This document shows positions 7,919 through 59,148 of a stretch of 64,000 nucleotides of DNA, piece by piece (position 1 is the first letter of the stretch; every line of letters begins with the position of its first letter). The position numbers and the translations under genes are program-made. The DNA is from Myxococcales bacterium (lineage in GTDB: Bacteria; Myxococcota_A; UBA9160; UBA4427): contig DUCN01000086.1 of the NCBI GenBank assembly GCA_012959805.1, forward strand, positions 4,002-68,001. Direction: 5' to 3'. The notes below the pieces were generated by a model. That model did not search any database and was not told the origin of the DNA. It was given only the letters and a program-made list of their open reading frames with translations.

Positions 7919-8072
7919 GATTCCTCGGACCGGCGGTTCGCGAACGCAAAGAGCGATTCGTCGGCTGAATGTGGCCCAGATCCATGAATCGGGATCTCTA
8001 GGCGATCACCTTAGAGTCAATTCTGTGAATGTACAACGAAAACAGGCCCCTCTGGGCGATTCGGGGAGCCTT

Positions 8073-9697: not shown

Positions 9698-9857
9698 TCG
9701 CGAGGTTTCGTTTGAGAAATCGTTTGTTGCGAGAATCCGTCAAGCTGCGGATTTGATTCGAGTATTTCCCCATTACGATTCTAATTGACATTAGAGCTCT
9801 TCGACCCCAATGTAATAGGGACGACCTAATCACGTTTTCTGGTGGGGGAATACGCGC

Positions 9858-16126: not shown

Positions 16127-16525
16127 ATGGCACTTCGCGCAATCGCGGGCTTGATCGGTGCACTCTTTCTTGTGCAGACCGCTGGCTGGATCCTGGACCC
16201 GGCCACCGCTGCGGAAGGCCTGGGGATGCCCCTGCTCGATGGGCTGGCCCGAAGTACGCAGATCGGCGACTTCACGAGTTTCTTCCTCGCGCTCGGCTCC
16301 ATGGCCATGCTCGGAGCGATCCGTTCGAACGGAACCTGGCTGCGGGCCAGCGCGATTCTCCTCGGCGGAGCAGCCATCATGCGTACGTTGGCCTGGGCGA
16401 TTCACGATGCCGAACTGGCCACGGAACTCATCGTCATCGAGGCAGCCTTGGCCATCGTGCTACTCGCCATCGCGTCCCGATTCGACGCTGCGGCAACGGA
16501 TCCGGCGACCGCCGAAGTCAATTGA
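16127..16525 (+). CDS. Small 4-TM membrane protein (DUF4345-like)
   Basis: A good RBS (AAGGAG) lies 8 nt upstream of the ATG. The 132-aa product has four hydrophobic segments. The family assignment is from memory only. Confidence 0.5.
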   Translation: MALRAIAGLIGALFLVQTAGWILDPATAAEGLGMPLLDGLARSTQIGDFTSFFLALGSMAMLGAIRSNGTWLRASAILLGGAAIMRTLAWAIHDAELATELIVIEAALAIVLLAIASRFDAAATDPATAEVN

Positions 16526-16591
16526 TTCAGCACATCAAGCGTTGACCGCGCCGCCTATTCCGGCCACTCCGAATAGACCCATGGAGAGATC

Positions 16592-17332
16592 GTGACCGAA
16601 ACCGAATACCCGAAAATCACGCCCCATTGGGACGCGACCAAGCTCAGTCAGACCGAGATGTGGACCCAGAAGCGACGGCTGGCAAGCGCCATGCGCCTCG
16701 TCATCGAGCGCCTGGTTCCCAGCAACGCTCCGGTCGACGAACTTCGCCGCGCCGCAGTCGCCCTCGAGGGCTACGCCAAGGCGCTCAAGAATCATCCGCG
16801 CTTGCGGGATGCGCGTCTCTTTGGCGAATCTGCAAATGCGGGAGATGTCGGCGCTTTTTTTGATCAAAGCCCGCTCATCGGCCTCGCCAATCCCCTTGCG
16901 CCGCCCATCACAATTGGCCGTAAAGACGATCGCCATGCGCATGCGACAGCGGTCTTTGGATCCGCCTATGAGGGCCCACCGGGTTCCGTGCATGGCGGCT
17001 TCATCGCAGCCGCTTTCGACGAGGTCCTTGGATTTGTGCAGTCCCTCTCCGGCAATCCGGGCATGACGGGAACATTGACGGTCAAGTACCGAAGCCCAAC
17101 GCCGCTGCATTCCCCGTTGCTCTTCGAAGCAAGTCTGGACCGCGTGGAAGGTCGCAAGATATTTACGAGTGCCACCCTCGAAGCGAACGGAAAACTCTGC
17201 GCGGAAGCCGAGGGCATCTTTATTTCATTCCACAAAGAACAAATGGAAGAACTGACGCAGGCCCGCGCCAATCGTGAAGCGCTGCGTGAAGATGAAGAGG
17301 CCGCGACCGACGATGCCGACTCGCGCTCTTAG
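16592..17332 (+). CDS. PaaI/hotdog-fold acyl-CoA thioesterase with an N-terminal extension
   Basis: The core PGSVHGGFIAAAFDEVLGFV...GMTGTLTVKYRSPTPL...GRKIFTSATLEANGKLCAEAEGIFI is a typical PaaI-type hotdog sequence. Confidence 0.75.
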   Translation: MTETEYPKITPHWDATKLSQTEMWTQKRRLASAMRLVIERLVPSNAPVDELRRAAVALEGYAKALKNHPRLRDARLFGESANAGDVGAFFDQSPLIGLANPLAPPITIGRKDDRHAHATAVFGSAYEGPPGSVHGGFIAAAFDEVLGFVQSLSGNPGMTGTLTVKYRSPTPLHSPLLFEASLDRVEGRKIFTSATLEANGKLCAEAEGIFISFHKEQMEELTQARANREALREDEEAATDDADSRS

Positions 17333-17766
17333 GCGCCGCCCAACTTTCGGTAGTCGACTGTGCGCCATCGATCCGGCTGCATGACGAAGACCAGCCCGTC
17401 CTCGTTCGCGCTGTTCGCAACATACGCGTCGCCCATTTCGTCACCGAAATAGCGGCGTGCCATTGGGCGAAGATCGCCCTCGAGGTCTGCATCACGGGTT
17501 TCGACGATTGGGCCCTCGACGCTCACGTACTGGTAGATCGGGGGTTCCTCGATCTGGGCGACGAGACTGAACCGGCCGGCCTTCTGCATTGCCTTACCCT
17601 TGACCGAGCCCGCATCCGTAATGACCCACAACCCGGTCTCTGGCTTGTATCCGTACCAGATTGGCACCGTCAGCGGCGGCCGATCCTCCTGCTCGATCGA
17701 AATCACACCGACATGGAGATCGGCGAGAAAAACTTCGCGTTCTTCTCGAGTCATGGCCATCGACAT
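17329..17766 (-). CDS. Pyridoxamine 5'-phosphate oxidase family (PPOX-class, possibly F420/FMN-binding) protein
   Basis: The product is 145 aa and contains MTREEREVFLADLHVGVISIEQEDRPPLTVPIWYGY...GLWVITDAGSVKGKAM, the split-barrel PPOX pattern. Confidence 0.7.
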   Translation of the reverse strand: MSMAMTREEREVFLADLHVGVISIEQEDRPPLTVPIWYGYKPETGLWVITDAGSVKGKAMQKAGRFSLVAQIEEPPIYQYVSVEGPIVETRDADLEGDLRPMARRYFGDEMGDAYVANSANEDGLVFVMQPDRWRTVDYRKLGGA

Positions 17767-17830
17767 TGCATGTTCCTTTTCAGAGGTGTTGGCTAAGGGC
17801 GCGTCGAAGGTCCGATCGATTTCAAATGGA

Positions 17831-19126
17831 CTACCAGGGATGTACCTGAACGGGCAATTCGATAAAGCCCTTCACAAAGTTGGATCGAACCCGGATCGGC
17901 TCTCCCACGACTTCAACCAACCGAAAGCGCTTCATGGCTTCTTCCCAGGCGATCCGTAGCTGCATTTCGGCCAACCGGCTGCCCAAACAAAAGTGGACGC
18001 CCCAGCCAAAGGACAAGTGTTGTTTGGAATTGGCTCGGTCGATAAGAAATTCATTTGCCCTATCGATGACCGTTTCGTCTCGATTGGCCGACACATACCA
18101 CATGACGACCTTCTCACCCTTCTTGATCGACTTGCCCGCCAATTCGGTGTCACGGGTCGCGGTTCTCCGCATGTGAGCGAGCGGCGTCTGCCAACGAATG
18201 ATCTCGTTAACCATATTGGGGATGAGGTCCGGGTTGTCACGCAGCTTCTGATATTCCTTCGGGTTTTCGTTCAGAGCCAAAACCCCGCCGGTCAGAGAAT
18301 TGCGCGTCGTATCGTTTCCGCCCACGATCAACAGGATGAGCGTCCCCAGATATTCCAGCGGCTCGAGATCTTTCGTCACATCGCTATTGGCGAGGGCCGT
18401 GATCAAATCGAGGCGCTCCCCCTGCGGCTTGTTCTCACGCTGCTTCCAGAGTTCCTGAAACTCAGCGAGGCATTCCATGAGCACCTTTTGCCGTGCTCCT
18501 TCCGTGACATCGGTCGCGCCGGTCTGCATCGGACTCGCCGTCGCCATATCGGACCAGTGGGTGAGCTTTCGTCGTTGCTCATAGGGAAAATCAAAGAGCG
18601 TCGCGAGCATTCCCGTCGTGAGTTCGATCGAGACCTTGTCGACCCAGTCGAAGGTCTCACCAATCGGGAGCCCGTCCATGATTTCGATCACTCGCTCGCG
18701 AATGATCGGCTCGAGTTTCTTGAGGTTGCGTGGACCCGCGACCGGCTGAGCAACCTTGCGGTGTGCAGTATGCCGGGGGCCATCCATCGTGATGAAGCCC
18801 GCCTCGATCGGAAAGTCCGGATCGGGATCGCCCACAACGATGCTATGCACGGAGGAATAGGTCTCAGGATCCTTCTCGACGGTCATGATGTCATCGAATT
18901 TCGTCACCGACCAATAAGCACCGAACTCGCTTTCCGCACAATAATGGACGGGATCTTCCTTGCGAAGACGTTCGAAGTATCCCCACAGCGTATCGGTCTC
19001 GAAAAGCTCCGAATCCGCGACGTCGATTTTTTCGATCGGTATGGAATAAGGATCAGCGCCTGCTTGACCAAGAGATGGAATGGGCGTGGTTTTAGTGGCT
19101 TCGCTCATGGGGGGTCTCCTCACCAA
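17831..19126 (-). CDS. Cytochrome P450, CYP153-like (terminal alkane/alkyl hydroxylase type)
   Basis: The Cys-ligand loop is HLSFGWGVHFCLGSRLAEMQL and the EXXR motif is EIIRW. The I-helix LILLIVGGNDTTRNSLTGG carries the GGNDTTRN signature I associate with CYP153. Confidence 0.8.
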   Translation of the reverse strand: MVRRPPMSEATKTTPIPSLGQAGADPYSIPIEKIDVADSELFETDTLWGYFERLRKEDPVHYCAESEFGAYWSVTKFDDIMTVEKDPETYSSVHSIVVGDPDPDFPIEAGFITMDGPRHTAHRKVAQPVAGPRNLKKLEPIIRERVIEIMDGLPIGETFDWVDKVSIELTTGMLATLFDFPYEQRRKLTHWSDMATASPMQTGATDVTEGARQKVLMECLAEFQELWKQRENKPQGERLDLITALANSDVTKDLEPLEYLGTLILLIVGGNDTTRNSLTGGVLALNENPKEYQKLRDNPDLIPNMVNEIIRWQTPLAHMRRTATRDTELAGKSIKKGEKVVMWYVSANRDETVIDRANEFLIDRANSKQHLSFGWGVHFCLGSRLAEMQLRIAWEEAMKRFRLVEVVGEPIRVRSNFVKGFIELPVQVHPW

Positions 19127-19227
19127 AGGTGGTCGATGCGTTCCACTACAGTAACACGAATCATGGGTCCGAATTCGCCGCGTTGAGGGGACCGACGCCT
19201 TCGCCGATTCGAGTTACAGTGGGAACG

Positions 19228-20307
19228 ATGAAACTCCCGCGCTTCCTGCCTACCTTCCTCCTCGCGCTCGTCACCGCGCTCACCCTGTTCTCAACCGTGG
19301 CCCCCGGCTTCGAAACCGAGAACAGGGCAATCGAGTCTCTGGGCCCCGCACCCCGCGACGCAGACGGCCGATTCACGAACTGGACGGGGACCTCTTCACA
19401 CGGCGGCCTTGGAGTTCGCTTCCCCTTCTTCCTTCGCCGCATTGGCGGCATATTTCGAAGCCGCCCCGGGTTCCCAACCCGCGTTGAAAACGACGGCGCC
19501 TTCCTCCGCGAGAATTCGCTGCACAGCACACCCACCGTCACCTGGGTCGGCCACGCGACACTGCTCATCCAGATGGATCATGTCACGTTCCTGACCGATC
19601 CGATCTGGTCTGATTCCCCAAGCCCGATTTCATTTGCCGGTCCCCGACGTTATGTCGAGCCGGGTATCGCCATCGAGGATCTTCCCAAAATTGACTTCGT
19701 CGTCATCTCACACAATCATTACGATCATCTGGATCTCCCGACATTGAGAACCCTGGCAGAACGCAATCCCGAGACGCGTTTCCTCGTTCCGCTTGGCAAT
19801 GCAGACTTACTCAAGAAGAACAAGATCGATCGCGTCGAGGAGTTTGACTGGGGCGAGTCGACGACATTGGGAGACATCACCATCCACTGTCTACCCAGCA
19901 GGCATTGGAGTAAGCGCAGTCTCCGAGATGACCGGAAGGCACTCTGGTCTTCATGGGCCGTCCAGAGTCCGAAGCGGAAATTCTATTTCAGCGGGGATAC
20001 CGGCTATTTCAAAGGCTTCTCTCGAATAGGAGAAGCCATGGGACCCTTCGATCTCGTCGCAGTCCCGATCGGTGCCTACGAACCCACCGAAATGATGAAG
20101 GAATCCCACATGAATCCGGAAGAGGCCGTACGAGCGGCCATCGACCTCGGCGCCAAACGCGCGATTGCGATTCATTTCGGGACTTTTGATCTATCCGATG
20201 AACCCGTCGCTGAACCGCCTGCCCGGTTTCTCGCGGCAGCAGAAGACTCCGGACTCACCCTGGACGCATCCTGGGTATTTCAGATTGGCGAGACCCGGCC
20301 CTTCTAG
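19228..20307 (+). CDS. MBL-fold metallo-hydrolase (NAPE-PLD-like), secreted or lipid-anchored
   Basis: The ORF starts at 19129. The likely start is MKLPRFLPTFLLALVTALTLF (a signal peptide) at 19228. The metal motif is VVISHNHYDHLD, followed by FSGDTGY. Confidence 0.75.
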   Translation: MKLPRFLPTFLLALVTALTLFSTVAPGFETENRAIESLGPAPRDADGRFTNWTGTSSHGGLGVRFPFFLRRIGGIFRSRPGFPTRVENDGAFLRENSLHSTPTVTWVGHATLLIQMDHVTFLTDPIWSDSPSPISFAGPRRYVEPGIAIEDLPKIDFVVISHNHYDHLDLPTLRTLAERNPETRFLVPLGNADLLKKNKIDRVEEFDWGESTTLGDITIHCLPSRHWSKRSLRDDRKALWSSWAVQSPKRKFYFSGDTGYFKGFSRIGEAMGPFDLVAVPIGAYEPTEMMKESHMNPEEAVRAAIDLGAKRAIAIHFGTFDLSDEPVAEPPARFLAAAEDSGLTLDASWVFQIGETRPF

Positions 20308-36241: not shown

Positions 36242-38014
36242 CTATCCGCGCTGTGGCATCATATCAGCGGCATCGATCCCAGCCACGACCGTGGGCTTCT
36301 TCATCGCGTCGCGTCGGAAGGGCTCACCCAATTCCTGATTGAGCAGAACCTCGATGAAGGTCGTCACTCCATTCACCTGCCCTTTACAGGCAATCCTGAG
36401 CGCCTCGGTCATCTCGGCCTGGGTCTGGACCGCAACCCCTGTTAGGCCACAACCTTCGGCAACTCGTGCGTAGCTCACCTGGGGATCTAATTCCGTACCG
36501 ACGAAATTATCATCGTACCAGAGCGTCGTGTTGCGCTTCTCGGCGCCCCATTGGTAGTTACGGAAAATGATCATTGTGATGGCCGGCCAGTTCTCCCGGC
36601 CTACCGAACTCATCTCGCTCATCGAGATCCCAAAGGCCCCATCGCCGGCAAAGCCCACGACGGGAACATCCGGACATCCAATCTTCGCACCGATGATCGC
36701 TGGGAATCCGTAACCACAGGGTCCGAAAAGCCCGGGCGCCAGATATTTTCGCCCCGACTCGAATGCGGGATAGGCGTTGCCGATCGCGCAGTTGTTTCCG
36801 ATGTCCGAGGAAATGATCGCATCCTTGGGAAGGGCCTCCATAATGGCTCTCCAGGCTTGTCTGGGCGACATCCGGGCCGAGTCGCGACCCCGTGCCCGCT
36901 CATTCCATGTCGTGCCCGGATCGTCATCCTCGTGATCCATCTTGGCGAGCGTGGCCTGCCAATTCGACTTCGTCTCCTGGATGGTTGCTTCGCGCTCGCC
37001 GCGACCCGCATCCCCTGCGTTGGCGGTGAGCTGTTCGAGTATTTGCTCGGCGACTAGTCGCGCGTCGCCCTCTATTCCGACCGCAACATCCTTCGTCAGC
37101 CCGATTCGATCGGCGTTGATGTCGACCTGGATGATCTTCGCCTCGCTCGGCCAATAGTCGATGCCGTATCCGGGCAGCGTCGAGAATGGATTCAATCGAG
37201 TACCTAAGGCGAGTACGACATCCGCTTTGGCGATCAATTCCATTGCCGCCTTTGAGCCGTTGTATCCGAGCGGCCCACAAGCCAGCGGGTGACTTCCTGG
37301 AAACGCATCATTGTGTTGATAGTTACAGCAAACCGGCGCGCTCAGCCGTTCGGCGAGCGCTTGAGAAGCCGGAATACCGTTGCCAAGAATCACGCCGGCA
37401 CCGTTTAGAATCAGGGGGAAGCGGGCTTCGGAGAGCAGTTGCGCGGCGACGGTGATCGCCTGCTTGCCTCCGGCCGACCGCTCGAAGCGAACCATCTGGG
37501 GCATTTCGATGTCGATCACCTGAGTCCAGAAGTCTCGGGGCACATTGATCTGCGCGGGAGCGGAGCCGCGCCAGGCCTTGAGGATCACCCTGTTGAGCAC
37601 TTCTGCGATGCGCGATGGATCGCGGACCTCTTCCTGGTAACAGACCATGTCCCGGAACATCGCCATCTGTTCGACTTCCTGAAAGCCACCCTGCCCAATC
37701 GTCTTGTTGGCCGCCTGGGGTGTCACGAGCAGCATCGGCGTGTGATTCCAGTAGGCGGTCTTCATTGCCGTCACGAAGCCTGTAACACCGGGGCCATTCT
37801 GCGCGATGGCCATCCCCATCTTGCCGCTCGCGCGCGTGTAACCGTCGCAGATGTATCCGCCATTCGTTTCGTGAGCGACATCCCAGAAAGTGATGCCGGC
37901 CTTCGGGAACAGATCGGAGATCGGCATGAAGGCGGAGCCAATGATGCCGAAGGAATGCGCGATCCCATGCATCTGCAGGACCTTTACGAAGGCCTCTTCG
38001 GTGGTCATCTTCAT
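36242..38014 (-). CDS. xsc: Sulfoacetaldehyde acetyltransferase (ThDP-dependent)
   Basis: The product is 590 aa. The N-terminus MKMTTEEAFVKVLQMHGIAHSFGIIGSAFMPISDLFPKAGITFWDVAHE...TPQAANKTIGQGGFQEVEQMAMFRDMVCYQEEVRDP matches my recollection of Xsc proteins closely. The ThDP motif GDGAFGISMSE...N is also present. Confidence 0.85.
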   Translation of the reverse strand: MKMTTEEAFVKVLQMHGIAHSFGIIGSAFMPISDLFPKAGITFWDVAHETNGGYICDGYTRASGKMGMAIAQNGPGVTGFVTAMKTAYWNHTPMLLVTPQAANKTIGQGGFQEVEQMAMFRDMVCYQEEVRDPSRIAEVLNRVILKAWRGSAPAQINVPRDFWTQVIDIEMPQMVRFERSAGGKQAITVAAQLLSEARFPLILNGAGVILGNGIPASQALAERLSAPVCCNYQHNDAFPGSHPLACGPLGYNGSKAAMELIAKADVVLALGTRLNPFSTLPGYGIDYWPSEAKIIQVDINADRIGLTKDVAVGIEGDARLVAEQILEQLTANAGDAGRGEREATIQETKSNWQATLAKMDHEDDDPGTTWNERARGRDSARMSPRQAWRAIMEALPKDAIISSDIGNNCAIGNAYPAFESGRKYLAPGLFGPCGYGFPAIIGAKIGCPDVPVVGFAGDGAFGISMSEMSSVGRENWPAITMIIFRNYQWGAEKRNTTLWYDDNFVGTELDPQVSYARVAEGCGLTGVAVQTQAEMTEALRIACKGQVNGVTTFIEVLLNQELGEPFRRDAMKKPTVVAGIDAADMMPQRG

Positions 38015-39248: not shown

Positions 39249-40550
39249 ATGAGTGAAGAAAAGGGACAAGGACTGGGAACACTGGCGGTGCATGCGGGCC
39301 AGGTGCCGGACCCGACGACGAACGCAAGAGCGGTCCCCATCTACGCGACGACCTCCTATGTCTTCAACGACACGGAGCACGCCGCGAACCTCTTCGCCCT
39401 CGCGGAACTCGGCAACATCTATACGCGGATCATGAACCCGACCAATGATGTTCTCGAGAAGCGGCTGGCCGCGATGGACGGCGGCGCGATGGGCCTCGCC
39501 TTCGCTTCCGGACAGGCAGCGATCAATGCCGCGATCCTCACGATCTGTCACTCCGGACAGAACTTCGTCGCGTCGACGAGTCTCTACGGCGGGACCTGGA
39601 CGCTCTTCACCAACACCTTCAAGAACATGGGCGTCGAGGTCCGCTTCTTCGATCCGAACAAACCGGAAGAGATCCATGATCTCGTTGATGAAAACACGCG
39701 CTGCGTCTATTTCGAGAGCATCGGCAACCCGAAGAACGACGTCCCGGATTTCCGAGCGATCTCCGACATTGCGCACGGACACGGGCTTCCGGTTCTCTGC
39801 GACAACACGGTGATGACGCCCATACTACTTCGCCCTATCGACCACGGCGTCGACATCGTGATCTACTCGACGACGAAATTCATCGGCGGACACGGCGTGC
39901 ATATTGGCGGCGTGATCGTCGACAGCGCGAATTTCCCCTGGGCCGAGAACCCCGATCGTTGGCCCGAACTCTGCGGTCCATCACCTTCCTATCATGGTGC
40001 CGTGCTTGAAGAAGCGCTGCGGCCGATGGGTAACATCTCCTACATCATGCATATCCGAACGCATTGGCTTCGGGATACCGGCGCGTGCATGAGTCCCTTC
40101 GCGGCGTTCCTTACTTTGCAAGGACTCGAGACGCTGCACCTTCGAATGCCACGCCACTGCGAAAACGCCTTGGCAGTCGCGAAATTCCTCGATGCCCACG
40201 ACGCAGTCGAATGGGTCAACTACCCGGGACTTCCCAGTCATGGTCATCACGAGGCGGCCAACCGTTATTTGCCGGACGGCGCCGGCGCGATCGTCGGCTT
40301 CGGAATCAAGGGAGGCCAAGCGGCCGGGAAGAAGTTCATCGAAAGCGTAGAACTGGCGAGTCACCTCGCCAATATTGGAGACGCCAAGACCCTCGTCATC
40401 CACCCGGCCTCGACGACCCATTCGCAACTCACGCAGGAAGAGCAGCACTCGACGGGCGTGACACCGGAATATGTTCGCATCTCCGTCGGAATCGAAGATG
40501 CCGCGGACATCATCGCGGACCTCGATCAGGCCCTCGCAGCAAGCCGTTAG
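39249..40550 (+). CDS. metY: O-acetylhomoserine sulfhydrylase / aminocarboxypropyltransferase (PLP-dependent)
   Basis: It contains GTLAVHAGQVPDPTTNARAVPIYATTSYVF...NPTNDVLEKRLAAMDGG. The PLP-Lys motif is YSTTKFIGGHG, followed by IGDAKTLVIHPASTTHSQL. The RBS is GAGAGGAG. Confidence 0.9.
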   Translation: MSEEKGQGLGTLAVHAGQVPDPTTNARAVPIYATTSYVFNDTEHAANLFALAELGNIYTRIMNPTNDVLEKRLAAMDGGAMGLAFASGQAAINAAILTICHSGQNFVASTSLYGGTWTLFTNTFKNMGVEVRFFDPNKPEEIHDLVDENTRCVYFESIGNPKNDVPDFRAISDIAHGHGLPVLCDNTVMTPILLRPIDHGVDIVIYSTTKFIGGHGVHIGGVIVDSANFPWAENPDRWPELCGPSPSYHGAVLEEALRPMGNISYIMHIRTHWLRDTGACMSPFAAFLTLQGLETLHLRMPRHCENALAVAKFLDAHDAVEWVNYPGLPSHGHHEAANRYLPDGAGAIVGFGIKGGQAAGKKFIESVELASHLANIGDAKTLVIHPASTTHSQLTQEEQHSTGVTPEYVRISVGIEDAADIIADLDQALAASR

Positions 40551-40590
40551 TTGCCTGCCGATCAGCTGGGCGTAAGCCTGGCCGGTCGGC

Positions 40591-42402
40591 GTGGAGCCAA
40601 TCGCCGTGAGTGATTCCCCAACAACCGATGCGTTGCGTAGCGCTTCGCCCCTGCGGCACGCGCGCACCTGGATTTCGAAGGAAACCCTCGAACTCGAAAA
40701 TGGCAGTCAGCTTTCCGATGTCAACGTCTGCTTCGAAACCTGGGGAAACCTCGACAAGGACGCTTCGAATGCGGTCTTGATTCCGCACGCCTTGAGCGGT
40801 GACTCGCATGTGACACGACATGAGGAAGACGACGAACCCGGCTGGTGGGAACTCCTCGTCGGACCGGGCAAACCGATCGACACCGACCGCTATTTCGTCA
40901 TCTGCTCAAATGTGTTAGGCGGGTGCCGGGGAACGACGGGACCCAACTTTGAAAATCCCGAAACCGGAACCGCCTACGGTGCCGAGTTTCCAGTCGTCAC
41001 GGTCCGCGACATGGTTGAGGTCCAGAAACGACTCGTCGACGAACTTGGAATCAAGCAACTGCGCGCAGTCGTGGGTGGATCGCTCGGCGGACTTCAGGCG
41101 CTCACCTGGGCCATCGAACATCCGGAGCGTGTCGGCGCCTGTATCGTTCTGGCGGCAGCTCCACGACTCAGCAGCCAGGGCATTGCCTTTGATGTGGTCG
41201 GACGAAACGCGATCCGCCACGACCCGTGTTTTGCGGGCGGACAATATTACGGAGGCCCCTCACCCGAGGCCGGCCTAGCGCTGGCACGCATGCTCGCGCA
41301 CATCACCTATCTCTCCGACGAATCCATGCGTACAAAATTCGATCCGACCAGGCTCCAGCCGCGATCGGTCGAGGGCGGATTCGAAAACATCTTTTCCGTC
41401 GGCTCCTACCTCGCACACCAGGGCGGGCGCTTCGTTGAACGCTTCGACGCGAATAGCTATATCACGCTGTCGACGGCCATGGATCTCTTTGATCTCGGAG
41501 AGCCTGGCGCCAAGCTCGAAGCGTCCCTCAGTCCGGCGACTTGTCGCTGGCTCTTCCTCAGCTTCTCGAGTGATTGGCTCTATCCACCCGAGGCCTCTCG
41601 CCAACTCGTCGACGCACTCGTCGCCCGTTCGCAACCCGTCAGCAGCTGCAACATCGAAAGCAGCGTCGGACACGACTCCTTTCTACTCGAAGAACCCATG
41701 CGACTCGGCGGAAGAATGGTCGCCTCGATGCTCGCCAACGAATCAGACACATCGGGCCCGATCCGTGTTCCCGAAGAACCCCGCATCGAGGATGCGACGA
41801 GCATCTTCTACGCACAGAGACTCGACTACGAGATGATCCTGCGCCTCATGCCCCGTGGAGCCAGCATCATCGACCTCGGATGTGGAAACGGAGAACTTCT
41901 CTCGATCCTTCGCGACCGCGACCACCACCCTCTTCGCGGCATCGAGCGAGACAGCCACGCCGTCGCCGACTGCGTCGACCGAGGTCTCGACGTCATCCAC
42001 GCAGACCTCGAAGAGGGGCTACCCGCGATTCCTGACCAGAGCTTCGAAGTCGCCCTACTTTCCCAGACCCTGCAATCGATCATCGATGTCGTCGGCGTAC
42101 TCGATGAAGTGGTTCGGATCGGCCGGCGCGGAATCGTGAGCTTCCCGAATTTCGCCTATCTCCCAATGCGCGAAATGTTCCTGCGAGACGGCCGCCTACC
42201 GAAAGCCGAAGGCCTATACGCCTACGATTGGCACGATACGCCGAATCGGCGTTTCCCATCGATCCTCGATTTCCAGGAACTCTGCGCGCAGCGTGGAATC
42301 CGTATCCTCGAAGCGATCTTCGTCGACTCCATGTCGAGTCAAGAAATCCATGACGACCCGAATCGGAATGCGGATATTGCGGTCATGGTGCTGGCCCGAT
42401 GA
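40591..42402 (+). CDS. metX: Homoserine O-acetyltransferase MetX fused to the methionine biosynthesis protein MetW
   Basis: A single 603-aa ORF. The MetX part has LIPHALSGDSH, NVLGGCRGTTGP, the nucleophile elbow VVGGSLGGLQAL, and GHDSFLLE. A ~40-aa linker follows. The MetW part is LDYEMILRLMPRGASIIDLGCGNGELLSIL...VSFPNFAYLPMR. Confidence 0.85.
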   Translation: MEPIAVSDSPTTDALRSASPLRHARTWISKETLELENGSQLSDVNVCFETWGNLDKDASNAVLIPHALSGDSHVTRHEEDDEPGWWELLVGPGKPIDTDRYFVICSNVLGGCRGTTGPNFENPETGTAYGAEFPVVTVRDMVEVQKRLVDELGIKQLRAVVGGSLGGLQALTWAIEHPERVGACIVLAAAPRLSSQGIAFDVVGRNAIRHDPCFAGGQYYGGPSPEAGLALARMLAHITYLSDESMRTKFDPTRLQPRSVEGGFENIFSVGSYLAHQGGRFVERFDANSYITLSTAMDLFDLGEPGAKLEASLSPATCRWLFLSFSSDWLYPPEASRQLVDALVARSQPVSSCNIESSVGHDSFLLEEPMRLGGRMVASMLANESDTSGPIRVPEEPRIEDATSIFYAQRLDYEMILRLMPRGASIIDLGCGNGELLSILRDRDHHPLRGIERDSHAVADCVDRGLDVIHADLEEGLPAIPDQSFEVALLSQTLQSIIDVVGVLDEVVRIGRRGIVSFPNFAYLPMREMFLRDGRLPKAEGLYAYDWHDTPNRRFPSILDFQELCAQRGIRILEAIFVDSMSSQEIHDDPNRNADIAVMVLAR

Positions 42403-53927: not shown

Positions 53928-55067
53928 CTAGACCTGGAATGACTGGACAACGTCGATGATGTCGGCCTGCTCCTCGGACGTTAGGTCAGAAAACAACGGC
54001 AAGCGCACAAGGCAGTCGCTGACGCGTTCCGTGACCGGGCATTGGCCGGCTCGACCACCAAATTGCTGTCCCATCGTCGAGAGATGCAGCGGCTGATAAT
54101 GAAAGACTGCGAGAATTCCACTTCGCCCGAGGTGCTCGATCAGACGGGTTCGTGCGTCAAGTGACGGCAGAATCAAATAGAAGAGATGGCAGGCATGCTC
54201 CACATGCTCGGGAACCGTTGGAAGCTCAACTCCGTTACGCGCGGCCCAACCGGACAACTCTCTCTGGTAGTTTCCCCAGATCTCAAAGCGTCGAGCCTGC
54301 AGCGTTTCTCGCGCTTGAAACTGCCCGTAGAGAAAGGCCGCGAGAATTTCGGACGGCAGATAACTCGACCCGAGATCGACCCAGGTGTATTTGTCGACTT
54401 GGCCGCGCAAGAAGCGACTACGATCCGTCCCCTTTTCGCGAATGATCTCGGCGCGCTCGATCCAGTCCACGTCGTTCAAGAGAAGTGCACCGCCTTCGCC
54501 ACAGCTAAAATTCTTCGTCTCGTGGAAACTCTGCGTCGCCACTCGGCCAAAGCTGCCCAGAGGCTTCCCCTTGTAGCTCGCGAGTAGACCGTGCGCGTTG
54601 TCCTCGATGAGCGTGGCTCCGGCCTCGCTCGAGATCGCTTGTAATTCATCCATCTCACAAGAGATCCCACCGTAGTGAAGTGCCACGATGGCCTTCGTAC
54701 GACTCGTCACGCTTTCACGCAAGGTGCGCTCATCCAGGTTGAGGGTGTCGGGGTGAATGTCGGCGAAGATTGGCTTTGCACCGTGAAGCGCGAATGCACC
54801 CGCCGTCGTGACAAAGGCAAACGAAGGTACAATCACCTCGTCACCGGGTTCGAGCCGGAGTAGCAGCGCACACATTTCCAGCGCATGGGTACATGAAGTT
54901 GTCAGCAATGCACGCTCGGTGCCCGTCCAGGACTCGAGCATCTCACAACATCGCCGCGTAAACGGGCCGTCACCGGCCGTGTGCCCGCCCTCAATCGCCT
55001 CGCGAACATTCTCGAGTTCGGCACCAGCGATGGAGGGCCTATTGAATTGAATCCGATACTCACTCAC
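53928..55067 (-). CDS. wecE: dTDP-4-amino-4,6-dideoxy-sugar transaminase (DegT/DnrJ/EryC1 family, WecE-like)
   Basis: From memory it is collinear with E. coli WecE. Matching segments are FNRPSIAGAELENVREAI, DGPFTRRC, SFHETKN (PLP Lys), AEIIREKGTDRSRFLRGQVDKYTWVDLGSSYL, FHYQPLH and LRLPLF. Confidence 0.85.
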   Translation of the reverse strand: MSEYRIQFNRPSIAGAELENVREAIEGGHTAGDGPFTRRCCEMLESWTGTERALLTTSCTHALEMCALLLRLEPGDEVIVPSFAFVTTAGAFALHGAKPIFADIHPDTLNLDERTLRESVTSRTKAIVALHYGGISCEMDELQAISSEAGATLIEDNAHGLLASYKGKPLGSFGRVATQSFHETKNFSCGEGGALLLNDVDWIERAEIIREKGTDRSRFLRGQVDKYTWVDLGSSYLPSEILAAFLYGQFQARETLQARRFEIWGNYQRELSGWAARNGVELPTVPEHVEHACHLFYLILPSLDARTRLIEHLGRSGILAVFHYQPLHLSTMGQQFGGRAGQCPVTERVSDCLVRLPLFSDLTSEEQADIIDVVQSFQV

Positions 55068-55801
55068 GTGCTAGGCCCCGCTTCCTGCCAGAAGTGATAC
55101 CACCGCTCCGTCCCGGTCGTCACGAACCCGAGACGCTCGTAGAGCCTGGCGGACTCGGCATTACGGGCCTGGCTGACGACGCGCACCCGTTCGTGGCCAC
55201 GCGTGGCAAGCCTGACGAGCGAACTCCTCACGAGCAGCTCGCCGAACCCGCGCCCCCTACAATTCTCCGCGACCGCGATAAGGCCAATCTTTCCCATTTC
55301 GGCAGATTCGCTTAGGCACGTTACGTAGCCCACTGCGTCGCCAGAATCGCGAACGACTAGCACATCAGATTCGACTGAAATGCATGCGTTGGTGATCCAT
55401 CGCTCGTAAAGGGCATCGCACATTTCGCGGGGAAAACCCGGGTCGTGATAGAAGCGAGTCGCCCCATGGCTCGACCGGGCGATGGCCTGCAGCGCATGTA
55501 AATCCTCTTCGCGATACGGCTGGGCACCGACCACGTCTTCTAATGATCGATGCTCCAGAGATCGTTCGCGCGTGACCCGCACATCCATGCATCTAAATCC
55601 GGCGTCCTCTGCAATCTCAATACTTTCGAGATCGCCATCGTCGACGAGGTAGTAGATGCAATCGATCGACTCGGCGCGCACGAAGTCCTGCACGCTGCAG
55701 ATCTTGGCGCGGTCGAGCCGTTTCCCTCGGATGCTCGCGATACGCCGACCAAAGAAAGTCGAATCCCATTCGAGACGCCGACAAACCGCGTCCGACATCA
55801 T
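55064..55801 (-). CDS. wecD: dTDP-4-amino-4,6-dideoxy-sugar N-acetyltransferase (GNAT, WecD-like)
   Basis: The N-terminus reads LEWDSTFFGRRIA, matching the WecD hallmark WxxxFFG. The C-terminal GNAT core is IGLIAVAENCRGRGFGELL...ARLYERLGF. It has 4-nt overlaps with both neighbours. Confidence 0.75.
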   Translation of the reverse strand: MMSDAVCRRLEWDSTFFGRRIASIRGKRLDRAKICSVQDFVRAESIDCIYYLVDDGDLESIEIAEDAGFRCMDVRVTRERSLEHRSLEDVVGAQPYREEDLHALQAIARSSHGATRFYHDPGFPREMCDALYERWITNACISVESDVLVVRDSGDAVGYVTCLSESAEMGKIGLIAVAENCRGRGFGELLVRSSLVRLATRGHERVRVVSQARNAESARLYERLGFVTTGTERWYHFWQEAGPST

Positions 55802-56772
55802 GGCAGATCAGAATCCCGGGCGGTCGTAGAACGAATGGCATAGGCCGGGCGCTCCATACTTCGCATGTGGATCCGCGCAATGTATTCACCAATGATGCCG
55901 AGCGCGAAAAGTTGGGCACCCGAAAAGATCGCGATCATCGAAGCCAGGAATGGAAAACCGGGCACACTCGTACCCTCGATGAGATAGCGACCCACCACAT
56001 ATGTGAGGGCGACAACGCCGACGAACGTGAAACTGAAGCCGATCAGACTCGCGATCTGAAGAGGAACCGTGCTGAAGCCGGTCATCATGTTGAGCGCATG
56101 GGTAATCAGTTTCCGAACCGTATAGTGAGACGCTCCGTCGACTCTTGCATCATGACGCACAGTCACCGCATCGAAACGTGTCGTTCCCCAGGTCAACAAC
56201 ACGTCAAGCGACACGAAGGGCCCCGGATACGCCGAGAAAGCGTTCCGCACTTCTGCACGAAAGACGCGAAACGCACTGACCTTCATGGCCGTCTTCGCCC
56301 CCATCGCATGACTGAGTGCGATCTTCGTCATTTGCGAAGCGATATTGCGCCATAGGCCGTGCTTTTCGGCGGCGGGTGTCCCGTAGACAACGTCGAAACC
56401 GTGGTCGAGGCGTTCGAGTAGCTTTGGAATTTCCTCGGGCGGATGCTGTAAGTCATCGTCGATCGTGAGGATGAGGTCGTGTCGCGCTAGGCGCGCACCG
56501 CAGAGCAACGCGTTGTGTTGGCCGAAGTTACGCATCAATCGAACGCCGCGAATCCATTCGTGGGCTCCGGCAAGCTCTTCGATGACACGCCAGACATCGG
56601 ATGGACTGCCGTCATCGACCAGAATGGCTTCAAAATTGTCGCAGACCTCACTGAGCACCGGCTTCAACCGGGCGATCAATTTGGGAAGAGCGACATCGCT
56701 GTTGTACACGGGAATCACGACGCTAATCGTTCTTGAAGTCGGCGGCGAACTCATCGGAGGCGTTAAAGTCAT
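55798..56772 (-). CDS. Polyprenyl-phosphate glycosyltransferase (GT2, ArnC/GtrB/DPM1-like, two C-terminal TM helices)
   Basis: The ORF extends to 56877, with the likely start MTLTPPMSS at 56772. It contains ISVVIPVYNS, LVDDGSPSD, RNFGQHNALLCG and DDDLQHPPEEI. The C-terminal helices end in GIIGEYIARIH. Confidence 0.85.
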   Translation of the reverse strand: MTLTPPMSSPPTSRTISVVIPVYNSDVALPKLIARLKPVLSEVCDNFEAILVDDGSPSDVWRVIEELAGAHEWIRGVRLMRNFGQHNALLCGARLARHDLILTIDDDLQHPPEEIPKLLERLDHGFDVVYGTPAAEKHGLWRNIASQMTKIALSHAMGAKTAMKVSAFRVFRAEVRNAFSAYPGPFVSLDVLLTWGTTRFDAVTVRHDARVDGASHYTVRKLITHALNMMTGFSTVPLQIASLIGFSFTFVGVVALTYVVGRYLIEGTSVPGFPFLASMIAIFSGAQLFALGIIGEYIARIHMRSMERPAYAIRSTTARDSDLP

Positions 56773-56812
56773 GATGAACGCGAAGGCTACCACAGGACGA
56801 AAGCGGTGGACC

Positions 56813-58525
56813 TCAACTCGGACCGGGGCACGTCTCGCAGAAAAGCAGGTCAAAGATCGGCAGCTCTTCGACGACACGATATCTCGATCGCAGTCCGTCG
56901 CGGAGAACGGTCCAGGTGTCGAATATCAACGAGCCATCAAGCGGAACGCGACGGATCAGGGCGTACCGTGGACCCGTTTCGAGGAAGCGATCAACCAGCG
57001 CGGCAGAGGCGGCCCGTGTCCATGTATTCATAAAAAGGGCTGCGTCACCGGTCCAGGGCCTGGCCCCCGCTTCCAGATAGATGAATGTCTTGAAGGGGTC
57101 GAGCACAGCGACGCGTTCGCCCTGGCTCTCAAGCGCTCTCACCTTATGGATCGCCGCCTGCAGCGGACCAACGAGCTGAAGGTCTCTGCTCTTGTCCAGA
57201 AAGATCTCGCGTCGGTCCGGAATCAAATACTCCCCCCGCGAGACTTCCTGGGTCCTATCCAGATTCCATCGGTTCGGATACGCGACGTAGGTGGGACTTG
57301 AAAAGAGGAGCGCGACAGTCGTGATCAGGATCAACACAGGTGCCGCGCGAGCGATCGGTGCAGATCCGGAATGCCGGCGAGAAGCTTCTCCGCGGGAGTC
57401 GAGATAGCGCTTGAGTTCGAGCGTGAGAATAATTGCGATCGACAGACCGACGAGTCGAATACGAATGGCCTGGGAATTCCAAACGAAGAGTAAGAGACGA
57501 CCCGCTCCATAAAACCCGACACATCCCAGGAGCAGAGAAGTCGGATCGAGGCGCCTGTGCAACGCTTTCATGGCGGTCTCGCTTACAGCATAAAGGCAAA
57601 TCGCAAAGGACCCGAGTGCGAAGAACAGATGGTCGGATTGCTGAGCCACGAATCGCGAAAAGAGGAGAGAGGATACGCTCACCGCGTTCAACAGGCCGCC
57701 GAGCCAGCTCGCGAGAACTGCCGCAGGCTCGTAGAAAAAGCGCCCGTGCGTGGAGATGACCAATCCGATTGCCAGAACGAGAACGAAAGCGATCGCGCTC
57801 TGCCAGAGCGTGGCGACCGGTCGCAGAGGCAGTGCGAGGGAGCGTGCGGTGGATGACCATTCGTCACGGGTCCGACTCCCGAAGAGAAGTGCGCACACCC
57901 AGTAGACGATGTAGGTCCCGATGAGCATCAATCCCGTTTCGGTTTCGAAATAGAGTCCCAGACCCGCGAGTCCGGCTGCCGCGACGGAAAATACCGGTCG
58001 ACCGCTGCGTCCGTGCATCAGCAATGCCAGAAAGAACAGCGCATCGAATGGGGCACGCAGACTTAGCATCGATGGCCATTGCCAATTGCTCAGCCCCGTT
58101 CCCAATTCATCGAAGAGTGGCGAGAAGAATCCGAGCCAGAGCGAAAATACGGTGCCGGCCAGCGCAAGGCTGCGCGACGACACCGCCACACGCATCAAGG
58201 CATAGACGGAGACGGCATAGATCCCGCAGAAAAACGCAGCGAACTCAATCGCGCCCTGGTGAGACAACGGCCACACACCCGAGATCGAACTCAAGAGCGT
58301 CGGCCAACCCAATCCGTAGGGCGCGTAGACGTCGAGAGACAGCGCCATACCATGCTGGTGGGCGAGTGCCTGTGCGATCATAAAATGATCCCAGTGATAG
58401 AAGCGATCCCATGCGAAAACCCAACCGGCGACGATCGACGGAACCGGCAAGTAGATCAGCGAGATGAGCGCGGCGCCAATCAGCCCGTCCAGCGCGTAGC
58501 CGTAACCATTATTCGACGACCTCAA
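56813..58525 (-). CDS. Large polytopic membrane protein with a soluble C-terminal domain, GT-C-like candidate glycosyltransferase
   Basis: The product is 570 aa with about 12 hydrophobic helices over ~400 aa. The acidic/aromatic first loop is WVFAWDRFYHWDHF. The soluble tail is ~170 aa. Its operon position matches that of ArnT or serotype-specific Gtr enzymes. I recognise no family with confidence. Confidence 0.45.
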   Translation of the reverse strand: MRSSNNGYGYALDGLIGAALISLIYLPVPSIVAGWVFAWDRFYHWDHFMIAQALAHQHGMALSLDVYAPYGLGWPTLLSSISGVWPLSHQGAIEFAAFFCGIYAVSVYALMRVAVSSRSLALAGTVFSLWLGFFSPLFDELGTGLSNWQWPSMLSLRAPFDALFFLALLMHGRSGRPVFSVAAAGLAGLGLYFETETGLMLIGTYIVYWVCALLFGSRTRDEWSSTARSLALPLRPVATLWQSAIAFVLVLAIGLVISTHGRFFYEPAAVLASWLGGLLNAVSVSSLLFSRFVAQQSDHLFFALGSFAICLYAVSETAMKALHRRLDPTSLLLGCVGFYGAGRLLLFVWNSQAIRIRLVGLSIAIILTLELKRYLDSRGEASRRHSGSAPIARAAPVLILITTVALLFSSPTYVAYPNRWNLDRTQEVSRGEYLIPDRREIFLDKSRDLQLVGPLQAAIHKVRALESQGERVAVLDPFKTFIYLEAGARPWTGDAALFMNTWTRAASAALVDRFLETGPRYALIRRVPLDGSLIFDTWTVLRDGLRSRYRVVEELPIFDLLFCETCPGPS

Positions 58526-59148
58526 GCGGACTCACCCCCTGTGTCCGCGGAAACGAACCAACCCGCGAAGATCGCGAAGACGAAGGCCAGGATTGTCGGG
58601 ATCGCCAGCAGCTGAAGATCTGAGGCCGCCACGATCCGCGTATCCGCGAAGCCCGGCCCGACCCAGGCGAGGGCGGCTCCGAAGCCCAAGGAGCTAGCCG
58701 CTGCGATCGCGAGCATGGCACGCGATCCTTGGCCGGCGATAGTCTCACGCTGATCGGAATCCGCCCGACGCAGAATCCGGTTCCAAGCCCAGATCCCGCC
58801 GCAGGAAAGCAACACCGTCGCCAGACACCCCACAGCATAGACCTCAGGATCAAATTCAACAGTCAGCATGCTGCGCCCGACGCGGGTCAGTGTTCGCGGG
58901 TCATAGGGCGACTCGGCCAACGGACCGATCGCAATCATTCCGAGCGCCGTCGATTGCACACCGAGGCTTGTCACGAGAAGGAGCACGGCGCGGCACGACG
59001 CCCAATAGCGGTGCGCGCTGACGGAATCTGGAATCGAAAGGCTGGGGATCATGCAGTCATCGGGCCCACTCCCGTTCGACTTCGTTCGATCGATAGCTTG
59101 TCCTGGTATCGAGACTGGATGACATTCACTAGGAATGTATGTCGACAA
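58522..59148 (-). CDS. Hypothetical integral membrane protein (4-5 TM helices)
   Basis: It overlaps the downstream gene by 4 nt and is the first gene of the operon. Hydrophobic segments include AVLLLVTSLGV, AVGCLATVLLSCGGIWAW, AMLAIAAASSLGFGAALAWV and LLAIPTILAFVFAIFAGWFV. The start is uncertain. Confidence 0.45.
   Translation of the reverse strand: MSTYIPSECHPVSIPGQAIDRTKSNGSGPDDCMIPSLSIPDSVSAHRYWASCRAVLLLVTSLGVQSTALGMIAIGPLAESPYDPRTLTRVGRSMLTVEFDPEVYAVGCLATVLLSCGGIWAWNRILRRADSDQRETIAGQGSRAMLAIAAASSLGFGAALAWVGPGFADTRIVAASDLQLLAIPTILAFVFAIFAGWFVSADTGGESA

Follow-up and report, generated by a model that had tools for sequence, protein, structure and literature searches.

A five-gene operon on the minus strand of the window, by which we mean the whole 64-kb stretch of DNA analysed here, probably encodes a self-contained extracytoplasmic "three-component" glycosylation system following the logic of the Arn and Gtr pathways, in which an acetylated amino sugar would be passed via a lipid carrier to the cell envelope. 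An Arn/Gtr-like reading had been put forward in the original prediction, and it is supported by the identities of the genes, by the GT-C fold predicted for the largest product, whose first loop keeps its acidic residues, and by synteny in other genomes, with an aminotransferase that groups with WecE. The host is, on the evidence of its proteins, an uncultured marine Myxococcota-like diderm bacterium: its housekeeping proteins share clusters (at 90% or more) with proteins of Myxococcota MAGs, and a TonB-dependent receptor at 9858-12314 was counted in favour of a diderm host.

The five coupled minus-strand genes were recovered in the ORF list at the coordinates first given for them (Table 1), and their limits entail overlaps of 4 nt at 58522-58525, 55798-55801 and 55064-55067; at the first of them GCT-TGA overlaps TTG-AGG, i.e., TTGA, the start of the 570-aa protein lying over the upstream stop. 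The 40-nt gap at 56773-56812 holds when the glycosyltransferase gene begins at ATG 56772 (MTLTPP...), which we adopt as a corrected start; public gene calls give this 324-aa product in three of the six sampled assemblies carrying the operon, and a longer product of 351 aa from an upstream start in the other three. The first gene does encode a membrane protein, as had been claimed, but one most likely shorter than the 208 aa given: ATG 59052 is favoured as its start by the 176-aa product of public gene calls and by the way its homologue begins in a related locus, L001 (MIDRFRLQVPDSV.., compared with MIPSLSIPDSV.. here). The operon is 99.6-100% identical at the protein level in at least six public assemblies, and a scan of it for regulatory signals found no promoter-like site and terminator-like sites at chance level only. 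The gene arrangement is not due to chance, because order and overlaps recur in two further loci (L001 and L003) at 43-75% protein identity.

Table 1. Genes of the operon and alternative limits of its first and third members.
Feature	Coordinates	Strand	Length and start
First gene, maximal ORF	58522-59148	minus	208 aa from TTG 59148
Small four-helix membrane protein	58522..59052	minus	176 aa from ATG 59052
Polytopic membrane protein, GT-C-fold core (predicted) with C-terminal alpha/beta domain	56813..58525	minus	570 aa, TTG start
ArnC/GtrB-type GT2 with two C-terminal membrane helices	55798..56772	minus	324 aa; maximal ORF 55798-56877
WecD-like two-domain GNAT N-acyltransferase	55064..55801	minus	245 aa
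WecE-family dTDP-4-keto-6-deoxyhexose 4-aminotransferase	53928..55067	minus	379 aa

By family assignment the aminotransferase is a true WecE-family enzyme, in line with its original identification: it passes the curated NCBIfam cut-offs for WecE over its full length (NF008687, 520.6 bits, cut-off 375; TIGR02379, 477.9 bits, cut-off 434.85; residues 5-377 of 379 aligned), whereas the ArnB family model gives only 184 bits against a cut-off of 631. The same grouping is seen in the PDB, where WecE 6blg (394 bits, 49% identity) and 4piw (388 bits) contrast with ArnB (at most 156 bits) and perosamine synthase (125 bits), and the SFHETKN motif, which aligns with the PLP-lysine motif of WecE, is conserved. 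The substrate of such an enzyme would be dTDP-4-keto-6-deoxy-D-glucose; Fuc4N or viosamine stereochemistry at C4 can only be presumed, since the NCBIfam name of TIGR02379 cites the gluco product. The acyltransferase, which has GNAT matches in Pfam, was rightly called WecD-like, as it displays the WecD two-domain layout (N-terminal domain and GNAT), aligns with WecD throughout (residues 4-235 of 245 against profile positions 4-229 of 232 in NF008212) and finds E. coli WecD 2fs5 as its top PDB match (about 26% identity, query 8-235, chain 19-233), although its scores against the WecD models NF008212 (90.6 bits, cut-off 219) and TIGR02382 (52.2 bits, cut-off 195.1) stay under the family cut-offs, so that the nature of the acyl group is uncertain.

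The glycosyltransferase (Pfam Glycos_transf_2, 2.2e-27) bears out its assignment to the ArnC/GtrB type, combining a GT-A GT2 domain with DxD motifs, two C-terminal membrane helices (hydrophobic segments at 233-251 and 272-290) and a full-length alignment with ArnC and GtrB. ArnC is its closest solved relative (9hwj, 151 bits over 14-316; GtrB 5ekp, 137 bits over 15-314), and the PDB alignment shows the motifs VDDGS and DDDLQHPPEEIP. The ArnC model NF007986 is matched over its full length at 174.4 bits, the cut-off of 529 not being reached, and among the NCBIfam models PgfS is also matched full length and PpgS weakly; the protein, which has thousands of close homologues, is by these scores a relative of ArnC, not an ArnC orthologue.

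That the 570-aa protein belongs to no nameable family was borne out by Pfam, NCBIfam and single-sequence PDB searches, all of which gave no match, by the lack of any Pfam match at E<=1 among 52 of its relatives, and by a profile of the 52-sequence family, which found no sequence match in the PDB. For this protein, comparison of folds was the one approach that gave an answer. The AF2 model of the 570-aa protein alone reached a pLDDT of 71.7, and that of the 176-aa and 570-aa proteins concatenated as an artificial fusion reached a pLDDT of 90.1 and a pTM of 0.91. With the latter, all 16 Foldseek matches at E<=1e-3 and the next two (E 1.2e-3) are GT-C enzymes, and the significant matches of an earlier, shallow model of the 570-aa protein were likewise GT-C enzymes only. 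The matches comprise STT3, DPY19, AglB, PglB, ArnT, AftA, EmbB and Pmt4, with TM-scores of about 0.3-0.5 (ArnT 0.49, normalised to target length; Pmt4 0.52), ArnT matching no better than STT3 and DPY19; transporters turn up at E>=5e-3 and not before, their TM-scores being about 0.1. The predicted architecture, shared with the GT-C-A enzymes (STT3/PglB/AglB, DPY19, ArnT, PMT, AftA/Emb), consists of a first membrane helix, a long external loop with two helices and conserved acidic residues, 11-12 membrane helices and a C-terminal soluble domain. In contrast to those enzymes, the transferase shows no detectable sequence similarity to them and has an extra four-helix N-terminal module encoded by a separate gene. 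The models thus indicate that the 570-aa protein has a GT-C fold, as had been foreseen, with no sequence-level link to described GT-C families.

The expected acidic conservation of the first loop is equally apparent in an alignment of 71 family sequences, position 40 being D/E in 69 and position 65 in 63 of them, with D in 51 and N in 17 at position 46. In later loops R157 is invariant (71/71), D161 nearly so (69/71), and position 196 is D/E in 71/71; Y70 is also invariant or nearly so. All these conserved acidic and basic residues fall within loops predicted to be periplasmic, and a disordered basic loop (216-233) lies on the opposite side of the model. D40, H44/W45, D65, Y70, R157, D161 and E196 are candidates for active-site and phosphate-binding-site residues, and, by fold and conservation, the protein is a candidate periplasmic glycosyltransferase.

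The small protein was originally treated as an independent protein of no recognisable family, a view that does not hold: with its four hydrophobic segments, it aligns to residues 10-105 of one fused relative (P0015, E 4e-15) and 47-137 of another (P0017), and L001 and L002 each have a homologue of it immediately upstream of the large gene. Most relatives of the 570-aa protein are 700-780 aa long and are matched by its profile only from about residue 190 on. From these alignments, the small protein is the detached N-terminal four-helix module of the GT-C-like family, normally one fused polypeptide and here split into two translationally coupled genes. A role as a GtrA- or ArnE/F-type flippase was considered for it and rejected, given its homology to the N-termini of fused relatives and the absence of a family match; at E<=1 neither it nor the N-terminal modules of the fused relatives (the majority of the 52) matched GtrA, EamA or SMR in Pfam. 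The family spans about 460 clusters at 50% identity, most of them fused, in at least six phyla, monoderm and diderm, with members in Myxococcota/Deltaproteobacteria, Verrucomicrobiota, Planctomycetota, Actinomycetota, Armatimonadota and Lentisphaerales as well as in Bifidobacteriaceae MAGs. The extra protein of about 525 aa in L001 and L003 and the product of window positions 487-2631 were also considered as paralogues; hhalign gave them probabilities of just 16% and 7%, over the C-terminal domain only, which leaves paralogy unproven.

Synteny extends well beyond the window. The five-gene arrangement that had been predicted recurs with the same order and overlaps, including the GT-C partner, in L001 and L003 (identity to the window 73-75% for GT2, 72-74% for WecE, 47-53% for WecD and 53-54% for the GT-C protein), and five further contexts (L035/36, L038, L039, L040 and L041; WecE 60-71%, GT2 66-70%) keep the trio GT2-WecD-WecE in order. 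The wiring of these three genes is thus not special to the window but represents a widespread cassette present in seven further sequence-distinct loci, five of which carry other polytopic membrane partners, the recognisable ones being PMT_2 GT-Cs. The partners in L035, L038 and L040 were considered as members of the same family and discarded, having neither a family-HMM nor a Pfam match. Because the trio stays constant while its membrane partner changes, the GT2 appears tied to the sugar and not to the transferase. In one locus, L039, the trio is accompanied by two PMT_2 GT-Cs and by genes resembling those for RmlA and RmlC. A GtrB-like GT2 adjoins the family member in the window, L001 and L003, a full-length one lies within 8 kb of distant family members in 7 of 25 genome loci, and L012 holds GT2-MT-MT-GT-C in one operon. 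It is from these gene neighbourhoods that the GT-C-like proteins are presumed to use a donor linked to polyprenyl phosphate.

A pathway can be proposed from these assignments. RmlA and RmlB, which would be encoded outside the window (no rmlA/rmlB was found by ORF scans within it, as had been stated), would make dTDP-4-keto-6-deoxy-D-glucose, which WecE would aminate at C4, and the WecD-like GNAT would N-acylate the amine to give dTDP-Fuc4NAc or a close 4-acylamido-4,6-dideoxyhexose. The ArnC/GtrB-type GT2 would then load the sugar onto polyprenyl (undecaprenyl) phosphate at the cytoplasmic face; its enzyme class is clear from the alignments, and its sugar specificity is deduced from the invariance and translational coupling of the GT2-WecD-WecE cassette. 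The lipid-linked sugar would be flipped across the membrane by a putative flippase; as also stated before, ORF scans of the window found no GtrA-, ArnE/F- or Wzx-like candidate, the four-helix gene of the operon being its only small polytopic ORF. Finally, on the periplasmic side, the two-polypeptide GT-C-fold transferase (176-aa module plus 570-aa core) would hand the sugar to an envelope acceptor, for which glycans, LPS and proteins are candidates. At the biochemical level, Und-P-Fuc4NAc as the donor, transfer in the periplasm and LPS as the acceptor stay a prediction.

Comparison with known systems places the operon among several of them. Like the Arn pathway (Und-P-Ara4N to lipid A), it groups genes for a sugar aminotransferase, for N-acylation, for an ArnC-type GT2 working on undecaprenyl phosphate and for a GT-C-fold periplasmic transferase, but the aminotransferase is WecE and not ArnB, the ArnA dehydrogenase/decarboxylase, ArnD deformylase and ArnE/F are missing from the window, the sugar is predicted to be a dTDP-derived 6-deoxyhexose instead of a UDP-derived pentose, and the transferase lies outside the ArnT/PMT_2 family and consists of two polypeptides. 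In E. coli, WecE and WecD make dTDP-Fuc4NAc for the cytoplasmic Leloir transferase WecF, and the window shares with this enterobacterial common antigen pathway a WecE family member and the two-domain layout of WecD; however, Pfam found no WecF (GT56), WecA/WecG or WzxE/WzyE among the window ORFs of at least 200 aa, and the sugar is predicted to be placed by the GT2 on a monophosphoryl carrier, not by a Leloir transferase on lipid II. Francisella FlmF2/NaxD/FlmK, Bordetella LgmA/LgmC/LgmB and mycobacterial PpgS/Rv3779 also employ an N-acetylated amino sugar, an ArnC-like GT2, polyprenyl phosphate and a GT-C acting outside the cytoplasm; their starting compound is UDP-GlcNAc or UDP-GalNAc, a deacetylase is among their enzymes and their GT-Cs are ArnT-like, whereas the window has no deacetylase, a predicted 4-acetamido-4,6-dideoxyhexose and a new GT-C family. 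The Gtr three-component seroconversion systems, in which the flippase GtrA, GtrB and the GT-C GtrX carry out periplasmic glycosylation after assembly (PMC11127046), resemble the operon in pairing a GtrB-like polyprenyl-phosphate GT2 with a polytopic GT-C-fold transferase; they differ in that the window lacks GtrA, dedicates two in-operon enzymes to tailoring the donor and uses a GT-C of a different, unannotated family.

Other explanations of the same genes have to be weighed. The GT2 and the GT-C-like protein could use a common sugar taken from a UDP or GDP donor (Glc, GlcNAc or Man), with WecE and WecD merely co-located and feeding a Leloir transferase elsewhere. To our knowledge, ArnC/GtrB/DPMS-type GT2 enzymes use UDP- or GDP-sugars and not dTDP-sugars, so that loading of a dTDP-sugar would be unprecedented, and the parts can occur separately, L002 having the transferase pair with no WecE, WecD or GT2 gene nearby and L037 the GT2 alone. 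We consider mere co-location unlikely, as trio order and junctions (4-nt overlaps or short gaps) are kept in eight sequence-distinct loci amid changing surroundings, GT2 (66-75%) and WecE (60-74%) are the most conserved members, and the trio has no Leloir glycosyltransferase beside it in the window, L001, L003, L035, L038, L040 or L041. Transient protection by the N-acetyl group, such as N-formyl provides in the Arn pathway and N-acetyl in the pathways of Francisella (NaxD) and Bordetella (LgmC), is another option, a deacetylated, cationic 4-amino-4,6-dideoxyhexose then being placed on lipid A phosphate, lowering surface charge and conferring resistance to cationic peptides. The gene logic does parallel arnB/arnA-formyltransferase/arnC/arnT, ArnT is among the structural matches and the host is a diderm; nevertheless, this appears quite improbable, since no deacetylase (ArnD, NaxD, LgmC or YdjC-type) is found in the operon or in the eight related loci examined, the family occurs in Actinomycetota and Bifidobacteriaceae, which have no lipid A, and ArnT at best equals STT3 and DPY19 as a match.

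The acceptor and the membrane pair raise questions of their own. Transfer to a secreted or anchored protein (O- or N-linked), for instance a PEP-CTERM protein, in place of LPS or a polysaccharide would fit with the protein glycosyltransferases STT3, AglB, PglB, DPY19 and PMT being the top structural matches, with the presence of the family in both monoderm and diderm phyla, and with a gene for a small PEP-CTERM protein divergently adjoining the cluster in L001 and L003. We give this a minor but real chance, given that GT-C fold similarity does not report the acceptor class, that neither a WWDYG-like nor any other known acceptor motif is evident in the 570-aa protein, and that PEP-CTERM proteins as general neighbours were rejected, being absent from the window and the other 39 loci. 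A function of the 570-aa and 176-aa proteins as a transporter, polymerase or structural membrane component, with a likeness to GT-C in topology only, is very unlikely: the modest TM-scores and the absence of a sequence-level relation to any GT-C family would allow it, but two independent models matched GT-C enzymes exclusively at E<=1e-3, with transporters trailing, the Asp and Arg residues of the predicted periplasmic loops are invariant or nearly so, and GtrB-like GT2 genes are enriched beside family members.

LPS, teichoic acids, cell-wall glycans and surface proteins owe part of their make-up to periplasmic "three-component" glycosylation, which underlies serotype variation and resistance to cationic peptides. 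The three-component donors that we know of have UDP- or GDP-sugars, or else phosphoribosyl pyrophosphate, as their source, and a full-text literature search found no paper in which ArnC/GtrB-type enzymes or GT-C transferases are connected with WecE, Fuc4NAc or viosamine. As a speculation to which we give little credence, the trio could represent an unrecognised, widespread class of polyprenyl-phosphate 4-acetamido-4,6-dideoxyhexose donors, the first dTDP-fed three-component systems, and the 176-aa and 570-aa pair a new GT-C family whose own four-helix module at the N-terminus, specific to the family, stands in for the absent flippase or delivers the donor. More broadly, many uncultured lineages hold a portable, conserved three-gene cassette that should yield a lipid-linked 4-acetamido-4,6-dideoxyhexose. 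To this is added a widespread polytopic family that no database model covers and whose fold is confidently predicted to be GT-C-like. If confirmed, cassette and family would extend the catalogue of glycosyltransferase families and of lipid-linked sugar donors.

The best-supported reading of the five minus-strand genes is an Arn/Gtr-type extracytoplasmic glycosylation system, as the original prediction had proposed, and gene identities, operon structure, synteny, predicted fold and residue conservation all support it, with amendments concerning the small protein and two start sites. All five predicted open reading frames were recovered (see table) and the three 4-nt overlaps follow directly from their coordinates, the small/large gene junction reading ...GCT TGA, with the TTG start of the large gene overlapping as TTGA. 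The proposed 40-nt gap holds if the glycosyltransferase (GT2) gene begins at ATG 56772 (MTLTPPMSS...), and depends on that start, which is used in the public gene calls of three of six sampled operon-carrying assemblies (324 aa); in the other three GT2 is called as 351 aa from further upstream. For the first gene, the frame stands but not the length of 208 aa: a 176-aa product from ATG 59052 is more likely, since public gene calls use this start and the homologue in L001, one of the two closest syntenic loci, starts at the corresponding point. The operon occurs at 99.6-100% protein identity in at least six public assemblies.

Features of the proposed glycosylation operon, of a second candidate glycan cluster in the window, and conserved residues of the 570-aa protein family (counted over 71 sequences)
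Feature	Position	Strand	Basis or conservation
WecE-family aminotransferase, 379 aa	53928-55067	-	ORF
WecD-like acyltransferase, 245 aa	55064-55801	-	ORF
GT2, maximal ORF	55798-56877	-	ORF
570-aa polytopic protein	56813-58525	-	ORF
Small membrane protein, 208-aa ORF	58522-59148	-	ORF
714-aa polytopic protein, sub-threshold PMT_2 (GT-C) match	487-2631	+	
Methyltransferase	2864-3676	-	
LPG_synthase_TM/UPF0104 membrane protein	3673-4647	-	
482-aa protein, no family	4635-6083	-	
GT4	6023-7141	-	
Short GT2	7199-7918	-	
Acidic residue	position 40		D/E 69/71
Histidine	H44		68/71
Acidic or amide residue	position 46		D 51, N 17
Acidic residue	position 65		D/E 63/71
Tyrosine	Y70		71/71
Arginine	R157		71/71
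Aspartate	D161		69/71
Acidic residue	position 196		D/E 71/71

The three enzymes that are soluble or monotopic bear out their proposed names to different degrees. The aminotransferase exceeds the cut-offs of both curated WecE models (NF008687, 520.6 bits against 375; TIGR02379, 477.9 against 434.85) and reaches only 184 bits with the ArnB model (cut-off 631); among solved structures it is closest to WecE (6blg, 394 bits and 49% identity; 4piw, 388 bits), with ArnB structures at 156 bits or less, and the SFHETKN lysine motif is retained. The 245-aa protein is a GNAT aligning end to end with WecD (NF008212 positions 4-229 of 232), whose E. coli structure (2fs5) is its top PDB match, but at about 26% identity and below the curated cut-off (90.6 versus 219 bits), so that "WecD-like" is the right label and the acyl group is a candidate only. 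The ArnC/GtrB-type assignment of GT2 is upheld by full-length alignments, including the two C-terminal membrane helices, to ArnC (151 bits) and GtrB (137 bits) structures; far under the ArnC equivalog cut-off, it belongs to the polyprenyl-phosphate GT2 class without being orthologous to ArnC.

The 570-aa protein had been described as belonging to no nameable family, and sequence searches of Pfam, NCBIfam and PDB indeed returned nothing. A word-indexed search turned up no more than ten close relatives, all metagenomic, and an exhaustive search with an HMM built from their alignment matched 460 representative clusters (E≤1e-30 for 160); 52 aligned family members gave no Pfam match even at E≤1, and the family profile none among PDB sequences. 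Two AlphaFold2 models were computed, one of the 570-aa protein alone (10 sequences; pLDDT 71.7, pTM 0.75) and one of the small and large proteins concatenated, using 70 naturally fused relatives (pLDDT 90.1, pTM 0.91). For both, all Foldseek matches in the PDB at E≤1e-3 were GT-C glycosyltransferases (STT3, DPY19, AglB, PglB, ArnT with a target-length-normalised TM-score of 0.49, AftA, EmbB, and Pmt4 with 0.52); transporters appeared only at E≥5e-3, with TM-scores of about 0.1. The concatenated model has the standard GT-C layout: the first membrane helix leads into a long first loop that contains two helices, and about 11 more membrane helices and a C-terminal alpha/beta domain come after it. 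The conserved residues listed in the table would all lie in periplasmic loops, according to helix counting from a cytoplasmic N-terminus in the model together with the positive-inside rule; the poorly conserved basic loop 216-233 would fall on the cytoplasmic side by the same counting. A GT-C identity of this protein, a candidate in the original prediction, is thus supported at the level of predicted fold and by the conserved acidic residues of the first loop.

Most family members are 700-780 aa long, and the 570-aa profile matches them only from about residue 190. The small protein aligns to the N-terminal part of two fused relatives (P0015, residues 10-105, E 4e-15, 35% identity; P0017, residues 47-137), and it represents that family's N-terminal four-helix module in detached form. 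A sequencing frameshift as the origin of the split was ruled out: in L001 and in L002, another homologous locus, a separate small gene precedes the large one, each with a different junction, so that the split is genuine. A packing of the module against the GT-C-like core is suggested by the high pTM of the concatenated model. Since the small protein matches none of the GtrA, EamA and SMR families, and the window has no other small polytopic ORF, no recognisable flippase is present there, in line with the prediction; an aid in donor delivery or flipping is a candidate role for the module.

Conservation in other genomes was confirmed in the two closest syntenic loci, L001 and L003, which retain the large gene, GT2, WecD-like and WecE genes in this order with the same overlaps (identities to the window of 53-54% for GT-C, 73-75% for GT2, 47-53% for WecD and 72-74% for WecE); the exception is L002, where the small-plus-large pair is followed by an unrelated gene. 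GT2 homologues are numerous (E≤1e-60 for at least 7,998 proteins, with identities of 63% or more throughout the best 120), and in five of six sampled contexts (L035/L036 from a Myxococcota MAG, L038, L039, L040 and L041) they stand in the order GT2-GNAT-DegT, with identities of 66-70% for GT2, 42-49% for WecD and 60-71% for WecE. The polytopic neighbours of this trio vary: two PMT_2 GT-Cs lie directly upstream in L039, along with methyltransferase, RmlA-like and RmlC-like genes, L041 has a weak PMT_2-like protein, and the partners in L035, L038 and L040 are polytopic proteins that carry no annotation and give no match to the window's GT-C-like family. Conversely, distant members of that family have a full-length GtrB-like GT2 gene no more than 8 kb away in 7 of 25 genome loci, e.g., in a GT2-methyltransferase-methyltransferase-GT-C operon of a Verrucomicrobiae MAG, and in a Planctomycetaceae MAG whose neighbouring GT2 is grouped with a different deoxysugar gene set. 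The operon joins two modules, a donor cassette that is conserved and a GT-C partner that is exchangeable, and the main argument that GT2 uses the WecE/WecD product is that it travels with WecE/WecD and not with the transferase.

Several loci show further arrangements. A solitary GT2 homologue (67% identical) without WecD/WecE lies between transposase and integrase genes on a 4.9-Mb contig (L037, 8001-8951), 3.4 kb from a Wzy_C gene. The L001 cluster is larger than that of the window: a PMT_2+TPR protein (839 aa) is encoded upstream, a GT87-like GT-C (444 aa) and a polytopic TPR protein (621 aa) downstream (6105-8624 and 16354-19750), so that one donor cassette is surrounded by up to four proteins of GT-C type. 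An extra polytopic protein of about 525 aa follows WecE in L001 (14774-16357) and L003 (6136-7707), with 60% mutual identity and no Pfam match; the window lacks it, and L002 has a copy at 34% identity close to its transferase pair (9000-10589, minus strand). The C-terminal part of this extra protein bears a weak resemblance to that of the 570-aa family (hhalign probability 16%). In five Actinomycetota and Chthonomonadaceae MAG loci (L022, L024, L025, L028, L029), the GT-C-like family is represented by two or three tandem paralogues side by side. In a Planctomycetaceae MAG (L020, 5558-14869), a fused member directly follows a PMT_2 GT-C, and an opposite-strand operon encodes an FAD/NAD reductase, a 438-aa DegT-type enzyme, a GtrB-like GT2, an epimerase/dehydratase and a HAD hydrolase, which suggests that the same transferase family is served there by a different deoxysugar donor.

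The window's housekeeping proteins fall into clusters (≥90% identity) with Myxococcota, Myxococcales and 'Deltaproteobacteria' MAG proteins which, together with a TonB-dependent receptor gene, indicates an uncultured diderm host. A sulfoacetaldehyde acetyltransferase-like TPP enzyme, an O-acetylhomoserine sulfhydrylase and a MetX-MetW fusion (36242-38014 and 39249-42402) point to the likely host lineage, their 90% clusters being named after Myxococcota or Myxococcales MAGs. Unrelated metabolic genes (PhyH, GST-like, ADC-like, amidohydrolase) lie on either side of the operon, which is not part of an O-antigen or EPS cluster, and the window ORFs scanned include no WecF, deacetylase or flippase nor, as originally noted, rmlA/rmlB. 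A second candidate lipid-linked glycan cluster occupies 487-7918, where five coupled minus-strand genes (2864-7918) follow the 714-aa gene.

In the proposed pathway, WecE would aminate dTDP-4-keto-6-deoxyglucose, the WecD-like enzyme would acylate the product, and GT2 would move the acylated sugar onto polyprenyl phosphate; the lipid-linked sugar would then be flipped and passed to an acceptor by the two-part GT-C-fold enzyme. What each step acts on, the topology and the acceptor are inferred, and so is dTDP-sugar use by an enzyme of ArnC/GtrB type, which to our knowledge would be unprecedented. Lipid A is disfavoured as a family-wide acceptor, because the GT-C-like family also occurs in Actinomycetota and Bifidobacteriaceae MAGs, although it may serve in the window's clade. 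A protein acceptor is hinted at by a divergent gene for a small PEP-CTERM protein (Pfam PF07589, at about threshold) immediately upstream of the cluster in L001 (8621-8986, minus strand) and L003 (612-1019, minus strand); the window and all other fetched loci have none.

The operon shares its logic with the Arn, Gtr, Lgm/Flm and PpgS systems, but differs from them in sugar, GT-C family and split architecture, and is without deacetylase and flippase; a full-text literature search found no description of such a system. The three-component principle is well established and unannotated glycosyltransferase families are common in metagenomes; the system described here is solid and testable by experiment.
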